Shown piece after piece: positions 2,305 through 51,878 of a stretch of 64,000 nt of DNA (positions are counted from its first letter, which is position 1; each line of letters begins with the position of its first letter). The notes under the pieces were generated by a model. The model was given only the letters and a program-made list of their open reading frames with translations, made no database searches and had not been told where the DNA came from. This DNA is from Nitrospinaceae bacterium (GTDB taxonomy: Bacteria; Nitrospinota; Nitrospinia; Nitrospinales; Nitrospinaceae): positions 1,856,001 to 1,920,000 of the forward strand of contig OZ250172.1 in NCBI GenBank assembly GCA_965237905.1, read 5' to 3'. The position numbers and the translations under genes are program-made.

Positions 2305-3189
2305 ATGTACGAAGTTAACAAAATATGCGAGCAGGGGAAACCCCTTTCCTTGAAGACGGACGGCCATTTGCGCGTGGTTTTTATCGGCGTGGGGTCTGCA
2401 TTTGCCAAAAGGCGGCGTCAATCCAACATCCTGGTGATCCAGGGGGACCACCATATACTGATTGATTGCGGTACCCAGGGGCCTTTGGCACTGAATGATA
2501 TCGGCTTGAGCGTGCAGGATGTGACTTGTTATCTTCCGACCCACAGTCATGCCGACCATATTGGTGGTTTTGAGGAAATCATGCTGATGAACCGGTACAG
2601 CCCATCCCCGCGGCAACCGAAGCTGGTTATTCTGCGGGATTACCAGGATCTGCTGTGGAGTAAAAGTTTGTCGGGCGGTGCGGAATACTGTGAAGTCGAT
2701 CAGGGTCGGTCTCTCCAAATAATCGATTTCTTTGATATTCTTCGGCCTAATCCAATCGAAGCCTATGGCCGGAAATGCTGGGTGCTTCAATACGGACCGA
2801 TCGAGTTGTTGATTACACGAACCCGTCATTTCCCGGACAGTGCCCTCAATGTGGATGAATCCCAATGGTGCTCGGGGGTGTTTATCAACAAAAAGGTATG
2901 GATTTCCGGGGACACCATGTTTGACCGGGAATATCCGGAGCGCTTCAGCGAGGAAGCGGAGGCGATGTTTCATGATTGCCAGTTGTTTCAAGGCGGAGTG
3001 CACGCCTCCTATCAGGAGTTGATGACCCTGCCCCGGGAGGTTCGACAAAAGATGTACCTGTATCATTTTGGCGATAATTGGGATGCTCCCGAGACATGGG
3101 TGCAAAATGCCGACAAATTTACCGGAGATCCCCTGCAGGACGGTTTTCTGGGTTGGACCCAACAGCAAGTAGCCTACGACTTTTATTAG
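2305..3189 (+). CDS. MBL-fold metallo-hydrolase, Apyc1-like cyclic-nucleotide phosphodiesterase family
   Basis: GVGSAFAK, LIDCG, THSHADHIGGFEE, SGDTMFD, FHDCQLFQGGVHAS and LYHFGDN motifs. Confidence 0.8.
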   Translation: MYEVNKICEQGKPLSLKTDGHLRVVFIGVGSAFAKRRRQSNILVIQGDHHILIDCGTQGPLALNDIGLSVQDVTCYLPTHSHADHIGGFEEIMLMNRYSPSPRQPKLVILRDYQDLLWSKSLSGGAEYCEVDQGRSLQIIDFFDILRPNPIEAYGRKCWVLQYGPIELLITRTRHFPDSALNVDESQWCSGVFINKKVWISGDTMFDREYPERFSEEAEAMFHDCQLFQGGVHASYQELMTLPREVRQKMYLYHFGDNWDAPETWVQNADKFTGDPLQDGFLGWTQQQVAYDFY

Positions 3190-8235: not shown

Positions 8236-8391
8236 CCAGCGTGACGCTGGACCCAATTTTTCCTCTCCTCCAGAGTGACGGTCAAGGTGAGCCGGCGTAG
8301 CGCCGGGGCAGATTTCGCAGGGGAGTAAGGGGCGCTAGAATAGTTATCTTCGCCAATCGGGGTTTTAAAGTTACCAGCGGAGGTACTCCGC
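8236..8391. repeat. Composite palindromic repeat family A, copy 1
   Basis: CCAGCGTGACGCTGGACCCA at 8236 and TTAAAGTTACCAGCGGAGGTACTCCGC at 8365-8391; both ends recur at 41436-41565 and 59321-59413. Confidence 0.8.
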
Positions 8392-9572
8392 TAGGTTTTT
8401 TGCAGAAAGTCGGAGAGCTTGTCAAAGGTGGCGGCGAAGTATTCGTGGGAATAATTGACGCCATTGTGATGCAAGAGTTCCTCCAGCTCGTCCGGAATCT
8501 TTTTCTTGGGAGGGTATTGAAATTCATCCACCATGAGAGGAACAATATTCCTGTGAGTGGTGATGGCATGGGAGATTTCCCTCCGCAACCAGTCGTCATG
8601 GTCCGTGCACCGGTCCATAGAGCCGGGCGACAAGACCACCACGAAATTGGGAACCGATTCGATTTCCCGCAATAACCGCTCACCGAACTGCTTCGGCCCG
8701 AGATCGTCCACATCCAGAAATGACAGATGCCCCCTTTTTTTCAATTCCGATTGAACGATGCGGGCCATGATGGAACCGGTCTCCCTGCGATAACTGATGA
8801 AGGTCGTTTTTTTCTCCGGCAGTTTCATTCCCATTACGGTGGCGCCCTGGGTCGCCAGTTCCGGTTGCACCTTTTTAATTTTATCCACAATCCGGTGATC
8901 CCACAGAACGGCCAGAGACGCACTGAAGACGCCTAAAAATCCGCCCATGATCAGATCCGGCACCCAGTGGATGCCCAGGGTGAATGAAGAAAGAATCACC
9001 ATGATTCCCAGCAGGCAAATGGGATTTTTGAATTTAAACCGGTAACGGTAACAGACAAAAATCATCACCAGAGTAAACGCAACCGGCAGACTGGGGAATG
9101 AGTTGTCCAACGCTCGGAACGATCTGTAAAACTCAATCCAGCCGGTGGACCACATATCGGATAGCAATGTGGCATTGGCCGGCGGGAAAGCCCACCGTTC
9201 CGGAACCGGGAAAAAGATAAAGAAGCATAGGGAGATCAAATAACTGATTGCGAGTCCCAAGGTCATCACGCGGAATGGAGTGATTTCTCTGCGGAAAAGA
9301 AGACCGGCAATCACCATCAGCAACAGCACGGGAAACAAAATGTAATAGGAAATGGAATGGGCTATCGCGGCCCCTTTCCCGAGGCCCGCAAACTGGGAGA
9401 AATCCAGATTTCCCTCCAATTCCATAAACGCCTGGGCGATTTTATAACCCGTTTCATACTGTGCAGGGTTCTTCAGGTTCGTCTTCATCTGGGTCTGGAT
9501 AGAGTTCACGATGAACAGCGCGAGTAGAATGAAGATCAATCCCAGGCGATTATTTAAAATTCGATGATTCAT
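8391..9572 (-). CDS. PAP2/AUR1-like multi-pass membrane protein fused to a C-terminal SARM1-like TIR domain
   Basis: About 6 TM helices with NSFPSLPVA and GIHWVPDLIMG (PAP2 C2/C3-like). The C-terminal TIR reads TFISYRR...FLDVDDL...NFVVVLSPGSMDRC...DWLRREI...NIVP...NGVNYSHEY. Confidence 0.88.
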   Translation of the reverse strand: MNHRILNNRLGLIFILLALFIVNSIQTQMKTNLKNPAQYETGYKIAQAFMELEGNLDFSQFAGLGKGAAIAHSISYYILFPVLLLMVIAGLLFRREITPFRVMTLGLAISYLISLCFFIFFPVPERWAFPPANATLLSDMWSTGWIEFYRSFRALDNSFPSLPVAFTLVMIFVCYRYRFKFKNPICLLGIMVILSSFTLGIHWVPDLIMGGFLGVFSASLAVLWDHRIVDKIKKVQPELATQGATVMGMKLPEKKTTFISYRRETGSIMARIVQSELKKRGHLSFLDVDDLGPKQFGERLLREIESVPNFVVVLSPGSMDRCTDHDDWLRREISHAITTHRNIVPLMVDEFQYPPKKKIPDELEELLHHNGVNYSHEYFAATFDKLSDFLQKT

Positions 9573-11263
9573 GATTTTTCTTTACGAGGCTTCGGCGGTT
9601 TGGGTTTAATGATCACCTCGACCAAAGTGAACAAGGCGGCCAAGCCGAACAGCCCAATCAAAATTTTGGTTGTTATTTTGTATGTGTCCCCGGCATTTGG
9701 GGTTCGCTCCAGAAACACCCGGTAGGCCACATTGCCCAGAGGCTCGAACCCGAACTTGCCGTCCTCCTTTTGCGGAAAACCCTTGCCCTTCAGTTGGAAG
9801 GAATGAAAATCCGATTGTGTGACTTCTACGTTAAAAGGCGTGTCTACGGTGTATTCGTTGGTATTGAAATCGCTCCACGTGATTTTTTGGACTTTCAGCT
9901 GTTGGCCCACAAGAATTTGAAAATCGACATCCCGCAGTACCCGCGCGGTTTCGTCATCAAACGGCCAGATATAACGGATGCGGTGCATTTTATGATCGAT
10001 CACCCAACTGATGCGCGACGCCAGGCTTTCCATATCCCCTATGCGGTAGCTTACGGAGAATTCCTGAGTCAGACCGGAATCCATGATCGTACTGGTCAGC
10101 AGGATCGAGTGGTCATGCCGGGTTTCCAGCGTCCAGAGAACGTCAAATGCGCTGTGGTAGTCTTCATCGAAGAGTTTCATTTCCGTTCCGGAAAAGCGCA
10201 CCGCCTGGCGGGCCGCCTCCAAATGTTTTTCATCGATTCCGGAGTTTTCCTTTTGAGATTTTCGAATATTGACCACCACGGGATGGGGCGTGGTTTTAGC
10301 CAGGTGACGCAGGGTGGCCAGTGACTTCCGCGCCTTCGGGCTGGCGTTGAAATCTTCCCACTTCAATATGTCTCCTTCACTGATGTCGGTCGCCTCCATC
10401 TTCCGGATGGTTTCGAGAATCTGGTCCTCGATCTGCTTGATGAGTTTATTAAACGGTTTGACCATCACCAGGAGGTCGTTGGGAGTCGAGTAAGGCAGTC
10501 GGATGAATTTGAGATCCGTATCGGTGTCGAACTTGTTTTTGACGCTTTCACGAACTGCCGCGAAATCTGCCTGCCTGCCCTTGATTATGGGAATCAAATC
10601 CGAAGAGGTAGTAATGCCATCCGGTGCCAGACTGTGAATCGTGATGAACTTCTGTTTGCCTTTAGGTTGCGTGAACAGAGAAAAGATGCCTTGCCTCTTG
10701 AAATATAAAGAAGGAAGAAAATGGCTCATGGTGCTGAACTTGCTGTGATAGACGAAACGCGCGGGTGTTTCCCTCTGTTTTAGAATGTTGATGAAATCCT
10801 TTATCTGGGCTTTCTGATTGCCCAGGTGGCGGGCAAAATCTTCCAGGGCCTCGGTTTTTTCATAGCCGAAATCTTTGTGGACAACGAAGTAACTGCCACT
10901 GGTAACTCTATGGTATTTTTTGTTTGAATACGTTCCCACAATCTCCATATTCGCCCCCAGCATTTCCGCGACGACAAAGGCGTAAGGGGCGACCCGGGCC
11001 AACAGCGGACCTTGTTTTTCCGGATCCCAGTCCACCAGGGTTTTGATTGCCAATTCATATTCCATTTCCTGTTTTTCAAAGGTCACGGGGACTTTGTGAC
11101 GCAAATAATCCAGAAGTTTCTGGTCGGCCAGCTTGGTATCGGCATCCGGTGCCACCGACAGAAATTGAATGGGGGTTCTTTGTTGGGAAACCGCGGTTCC
11201 TGGAAATACCACACTCCAGAGCAAGGCCAGTGCCCATAAATAGATCAAATGCCGTCGTGCCAT
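9569..11263 (-). CDS. Exported PhnD/phosphonate-binding-like solute-binding protein with a C-terminal TM anchor
   Basis: Signal peptide MARRHLIYLWALALLWSVVFPGTAVS; PBP2-like segments SYFVV, STMSHFLPSLYFKRQGI, ADFAAV, TPNDLLV; C-terminal hydrophobic helix with a basic tail. ATG lies 1 nt after the upstream stop and the gene overlaps the downstream start (ATGA). Confidence 0.7.
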   Translation of the reverse strand: MARRHLIYLWALALLWSVVFPGTAVSQQRTPIQFLSVAPDADTKLADQKLLDYLRHKVPVTFEKQEMEYELAIKTLVDWDPEKQGPLLARVAPYAFVVAEMLGANMEIVGTYSNKKYHRVTSGSYFVVHKDFGYEKTEALEDFARHLGNQKAQIKDFINILKQRETPARFVYHSKFSTMSHFLPSLYFKRQGIFSLFTQPKGKQKFITIHSLAPDGITTSSDLIPIIKGRQADFAAVRESVKNKFDTDTDLKFIRLPYSTPNDLLVMVKPFNKLIKQIEDQILETIRKMEATDISEGDILKWEDFNASPKARKSLATLRHLAKTTPHPVVVNIRKSQKENSGIDEKHLEAARQAVRFSGTEMKLFDEDYHSAFDVLWTLETRHDHSILLTSTIMDSGLTQEFSVSYRIGDMESLASRISWVIDHKMHRIRYIWPFDDETARVLRDVDFQILVGQQLKVQKITWSDFNTNEYTVDTPFNVEVTQSDFHSFQLKGKGFPQKEDGKFGFEPLGNVAYRVFLERTPNAGDTYKITTKILIGLFGLAALFTLVEVIIKPKPPKPRKEKS

Positions 11264-11264
11264 T

Positions 11265-13106
11265 TCAATTTTCTCCCAGGTGGTACATGCGGATTCTTCC
11301 AAAATTCTTGGGCAGGGGATGATTGCCTACATATTCACACCGATAAACCCCTGGCGCCTCAATTGAAATAAGCGCCGCAAAGGGTTCAGTCACATAGACC
11401 GATCCCACCGGAGTGCAGGGCTCCAGCCGGGCGGTTTTGTTGACATGCGTCCCGAAATATTCTTTTTTACGGGTGAGTGGATTGTACCCCTCAAAAATCG
11501 GCCCCACGTGTGTTGCCACCCGTAACCCCAGATCCTCAGGCAAATTCAGTTCGGCTAGCTCTTTGTCGGAGAAAATCCGGGTCAGCTCCAGCGAAACCCG
11601 GGCCGCGGAAGAAACGGAATCCATGACCAGATAAATCGCATCTCCCCACGTATTGGCAAACAGAATTTGCTTGGAATGGTTATTGAAAATCTGTTCCAAG
11701 TGGTGGAACCACCTGGAAATAAATTGCGGTAGTTGTTTTTCCTTGAGACTGCTGTAGCCTTTGACATCTGCAAAAATCATGGCCTTCATGTGTCGCTTCA
11801 GCTCTATTTTTTGGGATGAAGAAACCGGTAACGGGGCCACCCCTTTGGAGCGGGGCTCCGGCACCGGGATGACCAGGTTTTTTTGTCCCAAAGTTTCCCA
11901 ACGTTCCATGGCAGAGGCAGTGCCACCGGGGCTGGCGGAAGGTTGACCGTTCCACAACGCCACCTGGTAGGCCTGCGACCCCAGAGTTTGTGATCGCAGA
12001 TAAGCCAGTCCCATGATCTGCAGGGAACACGCCTCGTACAGCAGGTCGTAGCCGGTGTAGGCGTCCTCCACGATTTCATACACCGAGGCCGCGCGTTCCA
12101 ACGCCCGGTCAAATTTTTCCTCCCAGTCCGGACCCGCCGGGGAGACCGAGGTGCGTTTGAATTCCTCCCGGGAGAATGGCAAAATCACGTTCAATTCCCC
12201 GTCCGGTTGTTTCAATATTTCCTCAGCAATCATTAAATCTGCGCCACAGGCCAGCGCCCCGAACGCGATTTTGACTTTATGTTTTTCCAGAAGGTTACGA
12301 ATCTGTTCGCGGAGCATCTCTTCGTCCGCAGGATCGATGCCGGGCGATTTCCCCATACCATGAATGGTTTGGCCCATGAAAGCGATCACCGTGGGAGGCT
12401 GGATGGCTTCGATGCAATCGGTTGAGATCTCCCGTTGTTCGCAGATCAGAGACAACTGTTTCCAGGTGGTGCTCAGTTTACCATAATCATGAGAATGACC
12501 CCGATAGGCATGAGATAGAATCGGGGCTATTTCGTTATCGTTTTCCAAAAGAAGATTCGCTTCGGCACGCGTTACGTCGAGATAATAATCTTCACCGCCA
12601 TAGGTGGAGGAACTTTGATTGCAAAGTTTCAAAACTTCCTTTGCCAAACGACGGCAGGAGCTTTTATCGCCAATGATCAACGACAAGGTCGCGGCATTGA
12701 TGGCGGGATAGTAATTATGGTTGATCCGATATGCTTTGAGATAAAGGTCCCGGGCTTTTTTCCCCAACGATGTTTTGTTTCCGGGATCCTTTGCTTTCAA
12801 AAATTGATCTTTGTACAATCGTGCTTCCAGCGAAAGATTATCCTCGGTTGGAGGCAGTATGTCTTTCACTTTCCGGTAGAAATGTTCCGCCTGGGTCGTC
12901 GCGCCGCTTCTGGCCAGACTGAGGACCGCCAAATGAGCCAACGTTGGGTCGGCATTCTCCTGGTCCTCGAGGGCTTTGCAGGCCACATCATAGACCCCGA
13001 CAAAATCTCCTTTTTTGAGTAGCTCGCGCGCCTGGCAAACCAGTGACTCCGACTGCATGTCCTGAAATCCTTTTATAGTACTGAAATTACTTGGGTAAGG
13101 TGACAT
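11265..13106 (-). CDS. TPR-sensor (TRAFs-binding/DUF4071-like) + SLOG-like + class III adenylate/guanylate cyclase domain protein
   Basis: YYPAINAATL helical domain; ALACGAD, ILPF and LWNG...PGGTA SLOG-like motifs; cyclase motifs IFADVKGYS, NTWGDA, LRVATHVGP and YFGTHVNKTARLEP. Confidence 0.85.
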   Translation of the reverse strand: MSPYPSNFSTIKGFQDMQSESLVCQARELLKKGDFVGVYDVACKALEDQENADPTLAHLAVLSLARSGATTQAEHFYRKVKDILPPTEDNLSLEARLYKDQFLKAKDPGNKTSLGKKARDLYLKAYRINHNYYPAINAATLSLIIGDKSSCRRLAKEVLKLCNQSSSTYGGEDYYLDVTRAEANLLLENDNEIAPILSHAYRGHSHDYGKLSTTWKQLSLICEQREISTDCIEAIQPPTVIAFMGQTIHGMGKSPGIDPADEEMLREQIRNLLEKHKVKIAFGALACGADLMIAEEILKQPDGELNVILPFSREEFKRTSVSPAGPDWEEKFDRALERAASVYEIVEDAYTGYDLLYEACSLQIMGLAYLRSQTLGSQAYQVALWNGQPSASPGGTASAMERWETLGQKNLVIPVPEPRSKGVAPLPVSSSQKIELKRHMKAMIFADVKGYSSLKEKQLPQFISRWFHHLEQIFNNHSKQILFANTWGDAIYLVMDSVSSAARVSLELTRIFSDKELAELNLPEDLGLRVATHVGPIFEGYNPLTRKKEYFGTHVNKTARLEPCTPVGSVYVTEPFAALISIEAPGVYRCEYVGNHPLPKNFGRIRMYHLGEN

Positions 13107-35087: not shown

Positions 35088-35762
35088 ATGCCGGGACACT
35101 TATATTTGTTTTTAGACGAAGGCGGCAACTTGGATTTTTCAGCTTCCGGAACAAAGTATTTTACTCTGACCAGTGTGACCATGATCCGTCCCTTTCATAT
35201 GGCCGACCCGCTGGATGAATTGAAATACGATTTAATCGAATTGGGATTGGAAATTGAATATTTTCACGCTTCAGAGGATAAACAAAAGGTGAGAGATAAG
35301 ATTTTTGACATTATAAAAAATCATTTGAATCATATTCAAATCGATTCCCTAATTGTCGAAAAAAGGAAAACCGGTCCCGCTTTAACAAGCGAAGCCCAAT
35401 TTTATCCAAGAATGCTTGGATATTTATTAAAATATCCTTTGACCCATCAGGTTTTTGGGAAATATAGAGCGGAAGATTTTGACGAGGTGATTATCGTTAC
35501 GGACGCTATTCCGGTCAAAAGGAAAAAAGCGGTGGTCGAAAAAGCCATCAAATATTACTTAAAATCACTACCGCAGAAAACTCAATACCGGATCATGCAC
35601 CATTCGTCAAAATCCAGCATGGAACTCCAAGTCGCAGATTATTGCAATTGGGCGATTTTCAGGAAATGGGAAAGAAACGATACCCGGTCATACGATTTGA
35701 TCAAGGGTGGGATCAAGAGCGAATTTGATATTTTCAGGACTGGAACTAGTAATTACTACTAA
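35088..35762 (+). CDS. DUF3800-family protein (RNase H-like fold)
   Basis: N-terminal LFLDEGG, YFHAS and C-terminal LQVADY (QxAD) motifs; AT-rich relative to its flanks. Confidence 0.82.
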   Translation: MPGHLYLFLDEGGNLDFSASGTKYFTLTSVTMIRPFHMADPLDELKYDLIELGLEIEYFHASEDKQKVRDKIFDIIKNHLNHIQIDSLIVEKRKTGPALTSEAQFYPRMLGYLLKYPLTHQVFGKYRAEDFDEVIIVTDAIPVKRKKAVVEKAIKYYLKSLPQKTQYRIMHHSSKSSMELQVADYCNWAIFRKWERNDTRSYDLIKGGIKSEFDIFRTGTSNYY

Positions 35763-48926: not shown

Positions 48927-51878
48927 ATGCAGTCTTCAGGTTCCATAAATAAGTTCGTCGATCGCCTGTTTGAATCCAAGATGGAGAAAAACGGGGTTAT
49001 CCTGTTGATGGGCGAGGAGTGCTCACTGCGCTCCGGGATGCCTACGGCATCTGAATGGGTTGCGGCGATCAAAAAAAGTTACCCCAAGGCCTACGAAAAA
49101 GCCCGAACCAAAGACCTCCAGCATTGCGCGGCGGAATTAGCGGCCACTCAGAAATTCGAACTATTCAGTTTTTATCTGCGAAAATCGAAAGTCAGTTGGG
49201 CGCATTTATGTATAGCCCTGCTCATGAAAGAGGGATTTTTGAACCGGGTGTATACCACCTGCCCCGACCCTCTTTTGGAGAGGGCCTGTACTTTGGTGGG
49301 AGAGTTCCCAACCGTTTACGACTGTACGGTAGGAGCGATCACCAAACCGGAGTTGATACCCCCAAAATCGATCATTCATCTGAAGGGCCAGACTCTGGGT
49401 GCGAAGCCCGGTTCTCTGGAGGGCGTACTTTCCAGCGCGGGACGCAGCGGCCCCTGGTTGGTACTGGGATATAACCCCGATTCCAAAGACCCGGTTTACG
49501 AACAGGTCGCCTGGCTCGATAACATCAGTAAAGGATTGCTCTGGGTATTTTCGGGAAGCCAGCCTCCGGCGCGGTTTCTGCAGGAGCAGGTTTTTTCCAA
49601 AGCGAACAATCATTACACCCATTCCGAGGATCCGGACGTTTTTCTGGTTTCGCTGATTCGCATGATGAAGATCGGCATCCCCGAACTCATCGGTTACCCA
49701 TTTACGTTTTTGGGCCAATGGCTGAATAAAGTGGGCGCCTACCCTGCGCCCGGTCAGAAGGATGGGCTGAATATAGCGGATATTTCCCTCAAACAGACGA
49801 AAGCGGCTATCCAGCAGTATGAAGGTCCAGAACGGGGTAGCGATATCGGAGATGAAGAAGAAGCGGCAGGCGGGGTGGATGACCCGGAATTGTTGAAAGC
49901 CATTCAGGCGGCGCGCACCGGTTTGATGGCGGGGAACCCGAAGAAAGTGATCGAGCAGCACAAGCAGTTTGAAGAGACCCCTTCCGTTCAATTAGGTCAT
50001 CTTTTGAATTGGGCCTACCAGGTAGAAGGAGACTCCGCTGTTGAGGAAGCCAATAAACTGTTCGGCCCAAAAGCCTTGAAAAAATTAAAAGAGGCCCAGC
50101 CTCATTATGAAATGGCCCTTCAGATCAGGCCGGACGCTCCTCACACCTATTTCAAATTGGGCCGGTTGCTGGTTGAGCAGGCCAAAATTCAATCCGATGA
50201 CAATACTGCCGATCTGCTGGAGCAGGGCTCTGAACAATTCAAAAAGGCTCTCGAATTGAATCCTGATTTTTATGAAGCCAATTACGAGTTGGCGATGGTG
50301 CTTACAGAATTAGCCGGCACCAAAACCGACCCGGAATCGGATCAGTTATACGAGACGGCCGCAAAACAATTTCAAGAGAGCCTACGCGTCCAACCCAATC
50401 ATCCCGAGGCCGCTTATGGGGCCGGCCATGTGATGTTTTCTCAAGGGCGCCGCAAGAAAGGCGCGGATGCCGTACGGCTATACACCCAAGCGGTGGAAAT
50501 GTTTAAAATCGCCTTGCATGGCAACCCAGACAAAAGGGAGGCAATGGTGGAAATGGGGCAATCGCTCTTTATTCTTTCCAAAACCAAAAAAGGGGAAGAC
50601 GCCGATCGGTTTCTGATGATGGCCGAAGAAAAATTCCAGCAAGCCATACAACTGGATTCCACACTGGCAGAGGCTCAGTTCGGGTGGGCCGACGTTTTGA
50701 TGGAACGCGCGACATTGAAAAATGACGCGACTTCTGACCGGTTCTTCAACAAAGCGTTCGAAAAATACCAGGAAGTTTTGAATCTCAAGCCGGATATGCC
50801 GCGCGTGAATTTCCGATGGGCCGTGGGGCAATACAATATGGCGATGAAAAAATCCGGTGACGAAGCTGTCGGTTTGCTCAAGGATGCGGCGGCAAAATTT
50901 AAAAAAGCCCTCCAACGCAATCCCAAAAGTATTGAAATCCTGAGTCGCCTGGGACGCGTGTACTTTGAGTTAGCGAACAAACATAAAGGTTCTAATGCGG
51001 AGAAGCTCTATTCCCAAACCGTGAATCATTTCCATGACCTGCTAAAGCTACAACCGAAAAATTATAAAGTTATCTCCCAAGTGGGTGAAATTTATTACCA
51101 TATTTCCATGCTTAAAAAAGACAAGGAAGCGGAAAACCTGGTTCAAGCTTCCATCGAGAAATATCAGGATGTTCTTAAGATCAAACCTGACTACAGCCGG
51201 GCTATCATGTTGTGGGGAAATGCACTATTCCGGTTGGCAACTCTCAAGTCGGGCGACACGGGAGAGGATCTCTATAACCAAGCTGAGAAGAAATATGCGC
51301 AGGCCCTGAAAATTCATCCCAATGATGCCACCGCCTTGAGTAATTTTGGTTCGATCCTGTTGAAACGAGCCAAAAGGGAAGATCCGGACAAGGCAGGTCC
51401 CTTGTTGAATAAAGCGGTTGATTCCTTTCAGACCGCCATTGAGATTCGGGAGAACAATCCGGAAGCGCTCAACATGATGGGAGAAGCTTTAATCGCCCAA
51501 GCCAAAAGCAAACGGGGTATCAATGCGCATCCTCTGTTGGCCGAAGCGAAAGGGGTGCTTCAAAAAGCTGAAGAATACCAACCCGGCGCCGGGTGTTATA
51601 ACATGGCGAGACTCCAGGCTCAATTGGCGAACGAAACAGGGTGCCGTCAATGGCTGCAACGGTGCCAGGAACACAATGTTCTCCCCGATGCCGATGTGCT
51701 TACTGGGGAAACCCTGTTTGCCTCGGTGCGTGAATCCAATTGGTTTAAAAAACTGGTGCCCGATTCAGAACAACCGAAAGAGGGGCAGGAAGAGGTTGAG
51801 AACGGAATCGCCATGCCTACCAGTGACAATGCACCCGCCCCTTCCCCCAACAAGTCAACCAAACCTGCCAACGCGTAA
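48927..51878 (+). CDS. Degenerate SIR2-like domain plus a long TPR array
   Basis: LLMGEECSLRSGMPTA, AHLCIA, VYTTCPDPLLERA, IIHLKG and LVLGY map onto SIR2 motifs; about 12 helical repeats ending A(L/I)xxxP. Confidence 0.8.
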   Translation: MQSSGSINKFVDRLFESKMEKNGVILLMGEECSLRSGMPTASEWVAAIKKSYPKAYEKARTKDLQHCAAELAATQKFELFSFYLRKSKVSWAHLCIALLMKEGFLNRVYTTCPDPLLERACTLVGEFPTVYDCTVGAITKPELIPPKSIIHLKGQTLGAKPGSLEGVLSSAGRSGPWLVLGYNPDSKDPVYEQVAWLDNISKGLLWVFSGSQPPARFLQEQVFSKANNHYTHSEDPDVFLVSLIRMMKIGIPELIGYPFTFLGQWLNKVGAYPAPGQKDGLNIADISLKQTKAAIQQYEGPERGSDIGDEEEAAGGVDDPELLKAIQAARTGLMAGNPKKVIEQHKQFEETPSVQLGHLLNWAYQVEGDSAVEEANKLFGPKALKKLKEAQPHYEMALQIRPDAPHTYFKLGRLLVEQAKIQSDDNTADLLEQGSEQFKKALELNPDFYEANYELAMVLTELAGTKTDPESDQLYETAAKQFQESLRVQPNHPEAAYGAGHVMFSQGRRKKGADAVRLYTQAVEMFKIALHGNPDKREAMVEMGQSLFILSKTKKGEDADRFLMMAEEKFQQAIQLDSTLAEAQFGWADVLMERATLKNDATSDRFFNKAFEKYQEVLNLKPDMPRVNFRWAVGQYNMAMKKSGDEAVGLLKDAAAKFKKALQRNPKSIEILSRLGRVYFELANKHKGSNAEKLYSQTVNHFHDLLKLQPKNYKVISQVGEIYYHISMLKKDKEAENLVQASIEKYQDVLKIKPDYSRAIMLWGNALFRLATLKSGDTGEDLYNQAEKKYAQALKIHPNDATALSNFGSILLKRAKREDPDKAGPLLNKAVDSFQTAIEIRENNPEALNMMGEALIAQAKSKRGINAHPLLAEAKGVLQKAEEYQPGAGCYNMARLQAQLANETGCRQWLQRCQEHNVLPDADVLTGETLFASVRESNWFKKLVPDSEQPKEGQEEVENGIAMPTSDNAPAPSPNKSTKPANA

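Follow-up and report, generated by a model that had tools for sequence, protein, structure and literature searches.

A bacterial PAP2-family membrane protein with a SARM1-type TIR domain and its PhnD-like binding-protein partner: a candidate receptor module with exchangeable outputs

The analysed window is a stretch of 64,000 nucleotides from a Nitrospinaceae bacterium (contig OZ250172.1, positions 1,856,001 to 1,920,000), and the operon described here lies on its minus strand. The open reading frame at 8391..9572 encodes a protein of 393 residues in which a PAP2/Aur1-like membrane domain is joined through a flexible linker to a SARM1-type TIR domain. Its ATG overlaps the stop codon of the upstream gene (ATGA), which encodes a partner of 564 residues (9569..11263) with an N-terminal hydrophobic signal helix, a PhnD/XAC2383-like domain, an alpha/beta + beta domain and a C-terminal membrane helix, as delimited on the structural model. 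One base further upstream lies the gene of a nucleotide cyclase. The PAP2 gene and the partner gene form a pair that was found in Nitrospinota, Pseudomonadota, Verrucomicrobiota, Acidobacteriota and Gemmatimonadota.

The stretch 8391..8810, read on the minus strand, encodes TIR residues 255–393 and the stop codon; the plus-strand frame is interrupted by stops. The analysis of the whole protein with Pfam gave only PAP2_3 (E 7.5e-9), PAP2 (E 1.5e-6) and TIR_2 (E 1.4e-9, 8394..8810), and it is the sole TIR_2 match in the source genome. No ARM or SAM domain precedes the TIR according to Pfam, and the model shows a six-helix membrane domain in that position. All 19 distinct sequences matched by the TIR in the PDB (phmmer, E<=0.1) are SARM1 or TIR-1, the best of them with an E value of 1.4e-30, 109.7 bits and 56 identical residues among 136 aligned (about 41%). 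In the AlphaFold model of the protein, with a mean predicted local distance difference test score (pLDDT) of 83, the TIR superposes on that of SARM1 with Z 23.6 and a root-mean-square deviation of 1.6 A over 137 residues, while the next-best structure of a TIR other than SARM1 reaches Z 15.8; Foldseek agrees. SARM1 is thus the nearest characterised TIR by both sequence and fold.

The alignment showed that SARM1 residues F565, Y568, R569, R570, D594, F603, D627, C629, W638, E642, N679, H685, E686 and Y687 are kept. The counterpart of the catalytic E642 is E332 (8577..8579, codon GAA), which stands together with W328 (W638), H376 and Y378; residues H376-E377-Y378 (8439..8447) correspond to the EE loop H685-E686-Y687. 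The BB loop is substituted at K597, E599 and G601 (D290, G292 and K294), and further replacements affect H640, W662, W683 and Q688 (R330, Y353, Y374 and F379) and K628 (R). According to PMC8266388, the residues important in SARM1 are Y568, D594, G601, D627, K628, C629, W638, H640, E642, H685 and E686, while PMC11874154 names E642, H685 and Y687 as key and W662 and Q688 as minor; a modest effect of Q688A is also described (PMC8266388/PMC11874154). The consensus E(R/K)LEAG, given in PMC7075850 for the BB loop of SARM1 orthologues (group 24), is replaced by D-D-L-G-P-K, and from the group 24 EE-loop motif H(D/E)YQ the TIR keeps H-E-Y and has F for Q. Among 120 full-length homologues, E332 is present in 119, with a gap in the remaining one, His and Tyr of the EE loop occur in 117 each, and the NAD-binding set F258, Y261, R263, D287, F296, W328, E332, N370, H376 and Y378 is kept in 117–120; the G601 position is K or E in 100. 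Because Y568, D594, D627, C629, W638, E642, H685, E686 and Y687, residues whose mutation lowers SARM1 activity, are kept, NAD+ cleavage by this TIR is a well-founded prediction, for which the BB loop is the one caveat. The ratio of nonsynonymous to synonymous substitution rates against ten orthologues was 0.03–0.15 for the TIR and 0.12–0.18 for the membrane domain, and both are under purifying selection.

The original prediction, made from the sequence of the window, had described a bacterial TIR closely resembling SARM1 with its catalytic Glu intact. Both statements hold, the Glu being encoded by codon 8579..8577 and aligned with E642, and every motif quoted there, where no strand was named, occurs in the minus-strand translation. 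The resemblance had been said to run along the whole length; the alignment does cover 136 residues, but the BB loop, H640, W662, W683 and Q688 differ. The protein is predicted to be anchored in the membrane as proposed, although the word “tethered” understates the arrangement: the anchoring part belongs to the PAP2 family and makes up one half of a conserved module of two genes, a context that is absent from that prediction.

The PAP2/Aur1-like domain comprises residues 1–233 (8874..9572) with six predicted membrane helices. Its closest folds are Aur1 (Z 14.5, 6.2 A over 226 residues) and LpxE (Z 13.7, 2.9 A over 159 residues), with SMSr and PgpB also among them. The profile of the family matches YodM/PgpB (E 5e-4), and the invariant R150 aligns with the Arg of motif C1. 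A search for PAP2-TIR fusions gave 196 proteins at E<=0.001; among the 120 listed, most are full-length with 40–93% identity, and the named organisms belong to Nitrospinota, Methylococcales and Verrucomicrobia. The window protein keeps R150, H202 and D206, and the triad formed by C2 His, C3 His and C3 Asp is incomplete, with P163 (9084..9086) in the place of the C2 His. The membrane domain of this lineage is therefore predicted to be catalytically impaired. A search of species-representative genomes with patterns of the PAP2 part gave 97 loci, 80 of which were kept. R150/H163/H202/D206 are intact in 63 of the 79 complete loci, that is, in all 51 without a SARM1-type TIR and in 12 of the 28 with one. 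The broken cases fall into eight loci of the window's genus without H163, where the position is P, S or F, and eight loci of one Opitutae clade without H202 and D206; the catalytic residues were lost twice.

The partner was modelled with pLDDT 93 and a predicted template modelling score of 0.87, and contains a predicted class II binding-protein fold with an export signal. The best structural matches of the binding domain are XAC2383 (E 7.9e-12), HtxB, PtxB, ArrX, PhnD and AioX. XAC2383, ArrX and AioX are sensors paired with a membrane transducer, and the title of the XAC2383 paper agrees with this. Neither the sequence nor the profile of the partner had a match in a sequence search of the PDB; Pfam Phosphonate-bd was found in all ten partner homologues scanned and not on the diverged copy of the window, and the second domain has no Pfam or Atlas match. 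Most family partners carry the motif S-T-S, which in the window reads S-T-M; by analogy with PhnD, S-T-S would be an oxyanion-binding motif that, together with Y122, probably lines the ligand pocket.

A partner homologue adjoins the PAP2 gene, upstream or downstream, in 74 of the 80 genome loci, and in the remaining six a contig end lies within 140 bases on one side. The reverse search of metagenomes, starting from the partner, retained 80 of 154 loci; PAP2 was present in 54 of these and in all 21 whose flanks extend 2.5 kb or more to either side. In whole-genome searches of 120 genomes of the phylum, those with the PAP2 profile and those with the partner profile were the same 15, which all belong to one family. 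The comparison of neighbours showed no third gene recurring next to the pair across phyla. A phosphonate ABC transporter (PhnCDE) was ruled out, as no permease or ATPase recurs beside the pair across phyla. In two metagenome loci (L148:1960-3459 and L166:3456-4715) the PAP2 gene lies on the strand opposite to the binding-protein gene and is still adjacent to it.

The paired alignments showed that Y122 of the partner is present in 47 of 49 rows with an intact PAP2 triad and in none of 11 with a broken one. Of the columns conserved in at least 90% of the intact rows, one or both broken clades have lost 15 of the 58 that lie in the binding domain and 3 of the 33 elsewhere in the protein. This correlated loss points to coupled sites in the PAP2 protein and the partner. 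Pairwise identities in the two proteins also correlate (rho 0.71), which was set aside because kinship alone yields such a correlation.

The output joined to the PAP2 domain varies. Of the 80 loci, 28 have a SARM1-type TIR at the C-terminus of PAP2, 28 a Ser/Thr kinase and 8 a CHAT domain at its N-terminus, 3 an unrelated TIR at either end and 2 BTAD, and 11 PAP2 genes are unfused. The partner supplies a cytoplasmic tail of 265 residues in five of these 11 loci and a TIR in one; two more encode a TIR in a neighbouring frame, and contig ends truncate the last three, so that an output is hardly ever missing. All kinases but one truncated copy (27 of 28) have intact motifs, and five of the eight CHAT domains match both catalytic patterns. 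A quick tree of 77 PAP2 domains, from which three cut-off rows were omitted, requires at least 11 changes of output label against a minimum of six. Fusion at either end fits cytoplasmic termini, with the PAP2 site presumably on the periplasmic side together with the binding domain. TIR, kinase, CHAT and BTAD outputs are classes switched on by dimerising or clustering. The 265-residue tail, conserved on L035:2890-3684, L039, L066, L069, L077, L078 and L081 and with no Pfam or Atlas match, is maybe an unnamed output domain.

SARM1-type TIRs are widespread in bacteria. The phmmer search with the window TIR against 1.84 billion representatives gave 8550 clusters at E<=0.001, of which 4273 reach 1e-10 and 262 reach 1e-30. 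According to Pfam analysis of 103 of 146 new top matches, this type of TIR is fused to kinases, WD40, STAND/NACHT, double GTPases, caspase/CHAT, FGE-sulfatase, Sel1/TPR, CHASE2, colicin V production protein, FtsK and HSP70. In one close relative, P0127, the TIR is likewise tethered to the membrane, there through a colicin V production domain (CvpA). On a contig of a viral collection (L177:4998-6296) a SARM1-type TIR is joined to a methyltransferase-like domain next to a gene that is RyR-like by inspection; the viral contigs searched contained this one TIR-methyltransferase gene and no PAP2-TIR fusion. In an alignment of 173 related TIRs, picked by their likeness to the query, all 173 have the catalytic Glu; the Trp is shared by 169 and the EE-loop His by 150, and 76 carry Gly at the G601 position.

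The original prediction had further held that such a domain bears on a bacterial origin of SARM1. For this copy the bearing is weak, as the 262 clusters at E<=1e-30 indicate, and a 2026 preprint (PMC13142454) has already placed SARM1 in a mainly bacterial Clade 8; the TIRs of SARM1 and TIR-1 form group 24 of Toshchakov and Neuwald. Three other members, hand-picked for a SARM1-like BB loop, scored 120.8, 117.2 and 100 bits against the TIR of human SARM1, compared with 109 for the window TIR, and 121, 112 and 102 bits against TIR-1, compared with 88; two of the three, P0226 and P0220, thus outscore it against human SARM1. In a FastTree phylogeny of 141 columns, whose rows include no SARM1 orthologue, ten PAP2-fused TIRs fall into a group of 16 rows with support of 99, apart from both higher scorers, and by this tree the PAP2-fused TIRs form a derived group of their own. 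No SARM1 orthologue occurred among the 23 long relatives from the search, and none of these has a SAM or ARM domain. The resemblance to SARM1 is real and of a known sort, and the window copy is not the closest. Taken by itself, the TIR adds another member to a large bacterial subfamily and is no surprise. The subfamily itself is under-described, because a 2020 survey (PMC7075850) reports no bacterial SARM1 homologue, and it offers a pool for testing the origin of SARM1 and what such domains make.

The third gene of the operon (11265..13058) encodes, from the ATG at 13058, a protein of 597 residues in which Pfam identifies TPR-S and a class III nucleotide cyclase on either side of a middle domain; the longest open reading frame starts at 13106. 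The 15 of 21 family genomes that contain this gene are those that contain the pair, and the loci of other phyla lack it. D447 and D489, which bind metal, are kept together with N556 and R560, while the base-selecting positions hold the non-canonical residues N485 and E549. No SLOG was found in the middle domain by Pfam, by a profile search of the PDB (60 of 69 rows) or by three SLOG scans of the genome, and the comparison with one STALD-bearing protein by hhalign gave a probability of 0.2%. The domain resembles SLOG in its motifs, a likeness that five kinds of search did not support. A relay from the TIR product to the cyclase is hypothesis only; its model is the ThsB to ThsA SLOG relay, as outlined in PMC9503650 and 10.64898/2025.12.03.692087. 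Relatives with TPR-S, the middle domain and cyclase occur outside the window's family (P0316-P0321), one of them fused to RyR. Other class III cyclases, or a cyclic nucleotide-binding protein, are encoded a few kb away from three PAP2-TIR loci (L027:12830-14692, L034:9467-11203 and L033:11168-13297).

The operon is located between hldD/pentapeptide genes and a MASE1 histidine kinase gene, near def, fmt and gmhA (names assigned by inspection). All ten further genomes of the genus have it, and its location is unchanged wherever the flanks are visible. For the part of the loci inspected elsewhere, the neighbours resemble hemA-prfA-prmC, glgB, glnE, pantothenate kinase and aconitase genes. PADLOC was applied to 97 of 189 neighbouring open reading frames from 16 loci, and 11 matched at 1e-12. 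Each of these matches can be explained by a generic domain (methyltransferase, GlgB, cyclase, cysteine desulfurase, ABC ATPase, dGTPase, cyclic nucleotide-binding, metallo-beta-lactamase or radical SAM). The neighbourhoods look like housekeeping regions with stable chromosomal inheritance. Scans for promoters and terminators remained at chance level.

Several other features were noted in the same regions. A metallo-beta-lactamase at 2305..3189 (+) matches Pfam Anti-Pycsar Apyc1 (E 2.9e-25, above the cut-off) and is a possible cyclic nucleotide phosphodiesterase 8 kb from the cyclase. At 48927..51878 (+) lies a gene for a protein of 983 residues with an N-terminus that is SIR2-like by inspection, followed by many TPR repeats; SIR2_2 had no match in the genome (96% complete), this protein included. 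The open reading frame of 224 residues at 35088..35762 (+), in a patch of low G+C content (about 0.45), is of an RNase H-fold DUF3800 type by inspection and possibly inserted. Finally, in one relative, on the contig shared by L004 and L017, about 2.4 kb (9180-11620 of L017) is inserted between the PAP2-TIR and pentapeptide genes.

On this evidence, we consider it an even proposition that the pair is a ligand-triggered transmembrane receptor module with a predicted NAD+-cleaving TIR output. In the periplasm, the membrane-anchored PhnD-like partner would bind a ligand that carries phosphate and, being probably in contact with the PAP2 protein, would pass the signal inward through the PAP2-like membrane domain. 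Capture of the ligand would cluster the PAP2 domains and hence the outputs; clustered TIRs could then form shared active sites in the manner of SARM1 and convert NAD+ to nicotinamide and ADP-ribose or cyclic ADP-ribose. Where the triad is intact, the PAP2 domain may bind or dephosphorylate the ligand, and in the window's genus this chemistry was apparently lost and the TIR retained. A fuller version is more doubtful and held only tentatively: the PAP2 phosphatase fold would act as receptor with the PhnD-like protein as co-receptor, read a phosphorylated lipid or solute and fire the fused output, and in Nitrospinaceae an ADP-ribose-type messenger from the TIR would activate the TPR-S cyclase, a second-messenger relay of two steps serving ordinary physiology and not defence. 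If the receptor reading is true, the protein would be a natural ligand-gated bacterial SARM1-type NADase, maintained in a stable, housekeeping-like operon of relatives of nitrite oxidisers, and the pair would represent a new class of membrane receptor built on a lipid-phosphatase fold in five phyla. The module is directly testable because the kinase or transcription outputs can report the ligand without toxicity.

Several points weigh against this receptor reading. The direction of signalling is deduced from the outputs, and the membrane topology is a prediction. PAP2 is probably a real enzyme at loci with other outputs, because the triad is intact in all 51 complete ones, and it may not be a transducer. 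The correlated loss consists of two events whose branches are long (0.52 and 1.18), and general relaxation might account for it; the metagenome loci partly repeat the organisms of the genome loci. With a BB loop that lacks G601 of SARM1, filament assembly may differ. Three of the eight CHAT domains match the His pattern only and not the Cys pattern.

Among the rival explanations, an anti-phage or cell-death system, in which the pair would detect infection or damage to the envelope and the TIR would deplete NAD+ or supply the neighbouring cyclase with an ADP-ribose signal in the manner of Thoeris, seems unlikely to us while deserving attention. TIR, CHAT and kinase domains are typical outputs of conflict systems (section 33 of PMC7159879; PMC8195603), the third gene joins TPR-S to a cyclase with unusual base-selecting residues, and the distribution has gaps both between phyla and inside the family (14 of 20), where six genomes of 94–99% completeness do not have the operon. 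Against these stand the constant presence and site of the operon in the genus and the generic nature of the PADLOC matches; the operon's own proteins gave weak TIR-domain matches only, and the genome has no SIR2_2 match. A role in envelope or nutrient signalling is more likely than a mobile anti-phage cassette. The direction of control could also be reversed, with PAP2 as a lipid phosphatase or phosphotransferase of the Aur1/LpxE type, to which the partner delivers a phosphorylated substrate and whose activity the fused output regulates or accompanies. The largely intact R/H/H/D set, the nearest folds (Aur1, LpxE, SMSr and PgpB), the 11 of 80 unfused PAP2 genes and the correlated loss of pocket and catalytic residues, which fits the handing over of a substrate, speak for it. 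Yet the triad is broken in 16 of 28 SARM1-type TIR fusions while TIR and membrane domain remain under purifying selection, and, with the unfused loci counted in, an output is nearly always present, which makes this explanation rather improbable.

The two remaining explanations concern the TIR itself. That it is a non-catalytic or weakly catalytic scaffold which only oligomerises the membrane domain we regard as very improbable: PMC7075850 and PMC13142454 indicate, respectively, that a conserved Glu is not always tied to activity and that phylogenetic nearness of TIRs need not imply like chemistry, and the BB loop is changed at K597, E599 and G601, but the whole NAD-binding set is retained almost throughout the 120 homologues. 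Hardly any credence is given to the view that the bacterium-derived TIR of animal SARM1 had its donor near the window TIR. SARM1 and TIR-1 are its sole sequence matches in the PDB, well above other TIR structures, and PMC7075850 found no bacterial homologue; P0226 and P0220 nevertheless outscore it against human SARM1 and all three members compared do so against TIR-1, the Gly at the G601 position kept by 76 of 173 related TIRs is missing, the PAP2-fused TIRs form their own derived group, and there is no SAM or ARM domain.

The pair can be compared with several known systems. With SARM1 and TIR-1 the window protein shares the fold, about 41% identity, the catalytic Glu, W638, D627/C629 of the SS loop and H-E-Y of the EE loop; it differs in being bacterial, in having a PAP2 domain instead of ARM/SAM, in the BB loop, H640, W662, W683 and Q688, and in that its activity is predicted. 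XAC2383-XAC2382, AioX-AioS and ArrX-ArrS likewise combine a PhnD-like periplasmic domain with an adjacent membrane protein that signals in the cytoplasm, and no transporter is involved; here, however, the partner has an extra domain and a C-terminal anchor, the membrane part has a PAP2 fold instead of HAMP/GGDEF or a histidine kinase, and the outputs are TIR, Ser/Thr kinase, CHAT and BTAD. With the PAP2 superfamily (Aur1/IPC synthase, sphingomyelin synthase, LpxE and PgpB) the present family shares the six-helix fold and, in most of its own members, C1 Arg, C2 PSxH and C3 HxxxD; it differs in that its proteins are fused to outputs and tied to a binding protein and lack the C3 Arg, with the C2 His lost in the window's genus and C3 His and Asp in one Opitutae clade. 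Thoeris and related TIR signalling defence, as presented in 10.64898/2025.12.03.692087, also have a TIR with its catalytic Glu encoded in one operon with an enzyme that may respond to nucleotides. Here the TIR is fused to a membrane domain and has a periplasmic receptor partner, no SIR2, Macro or SLATT effector is adjacent and the loci are not in defence islands; a ThsB-like TIR standing alone beside a known effector (SIR2-SLOG, Macro-TM, caspase or SLATT) was not found, and NCBIfam ThcB4 scored 23.9 bits against a cut-off of 220. The EACC1 conflict system, as described in section 33 of PMC7159879, resembles the pair in its two genes, constant membrane component and interchangeable effectors, but its constant domains are EACC1 and caspase, while those of the pair are the periplasmic binding protein and PAP2, with far fewer effector types and stability within the genus. 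We found no description of a PAP2 and binding-protein pair in the literature, although architecture tables in supplements or other surveys may list the fusion, and “PAP2” is absent from the main text of PMC7159879, PMC13069673, PMC13142454, PMC7075850, PMC8195603 and 10.64898/2025.12.03.692087. As far as we could find, the pair is a variant, not previously described, of signalling by a binding protein and a membrane transducer.

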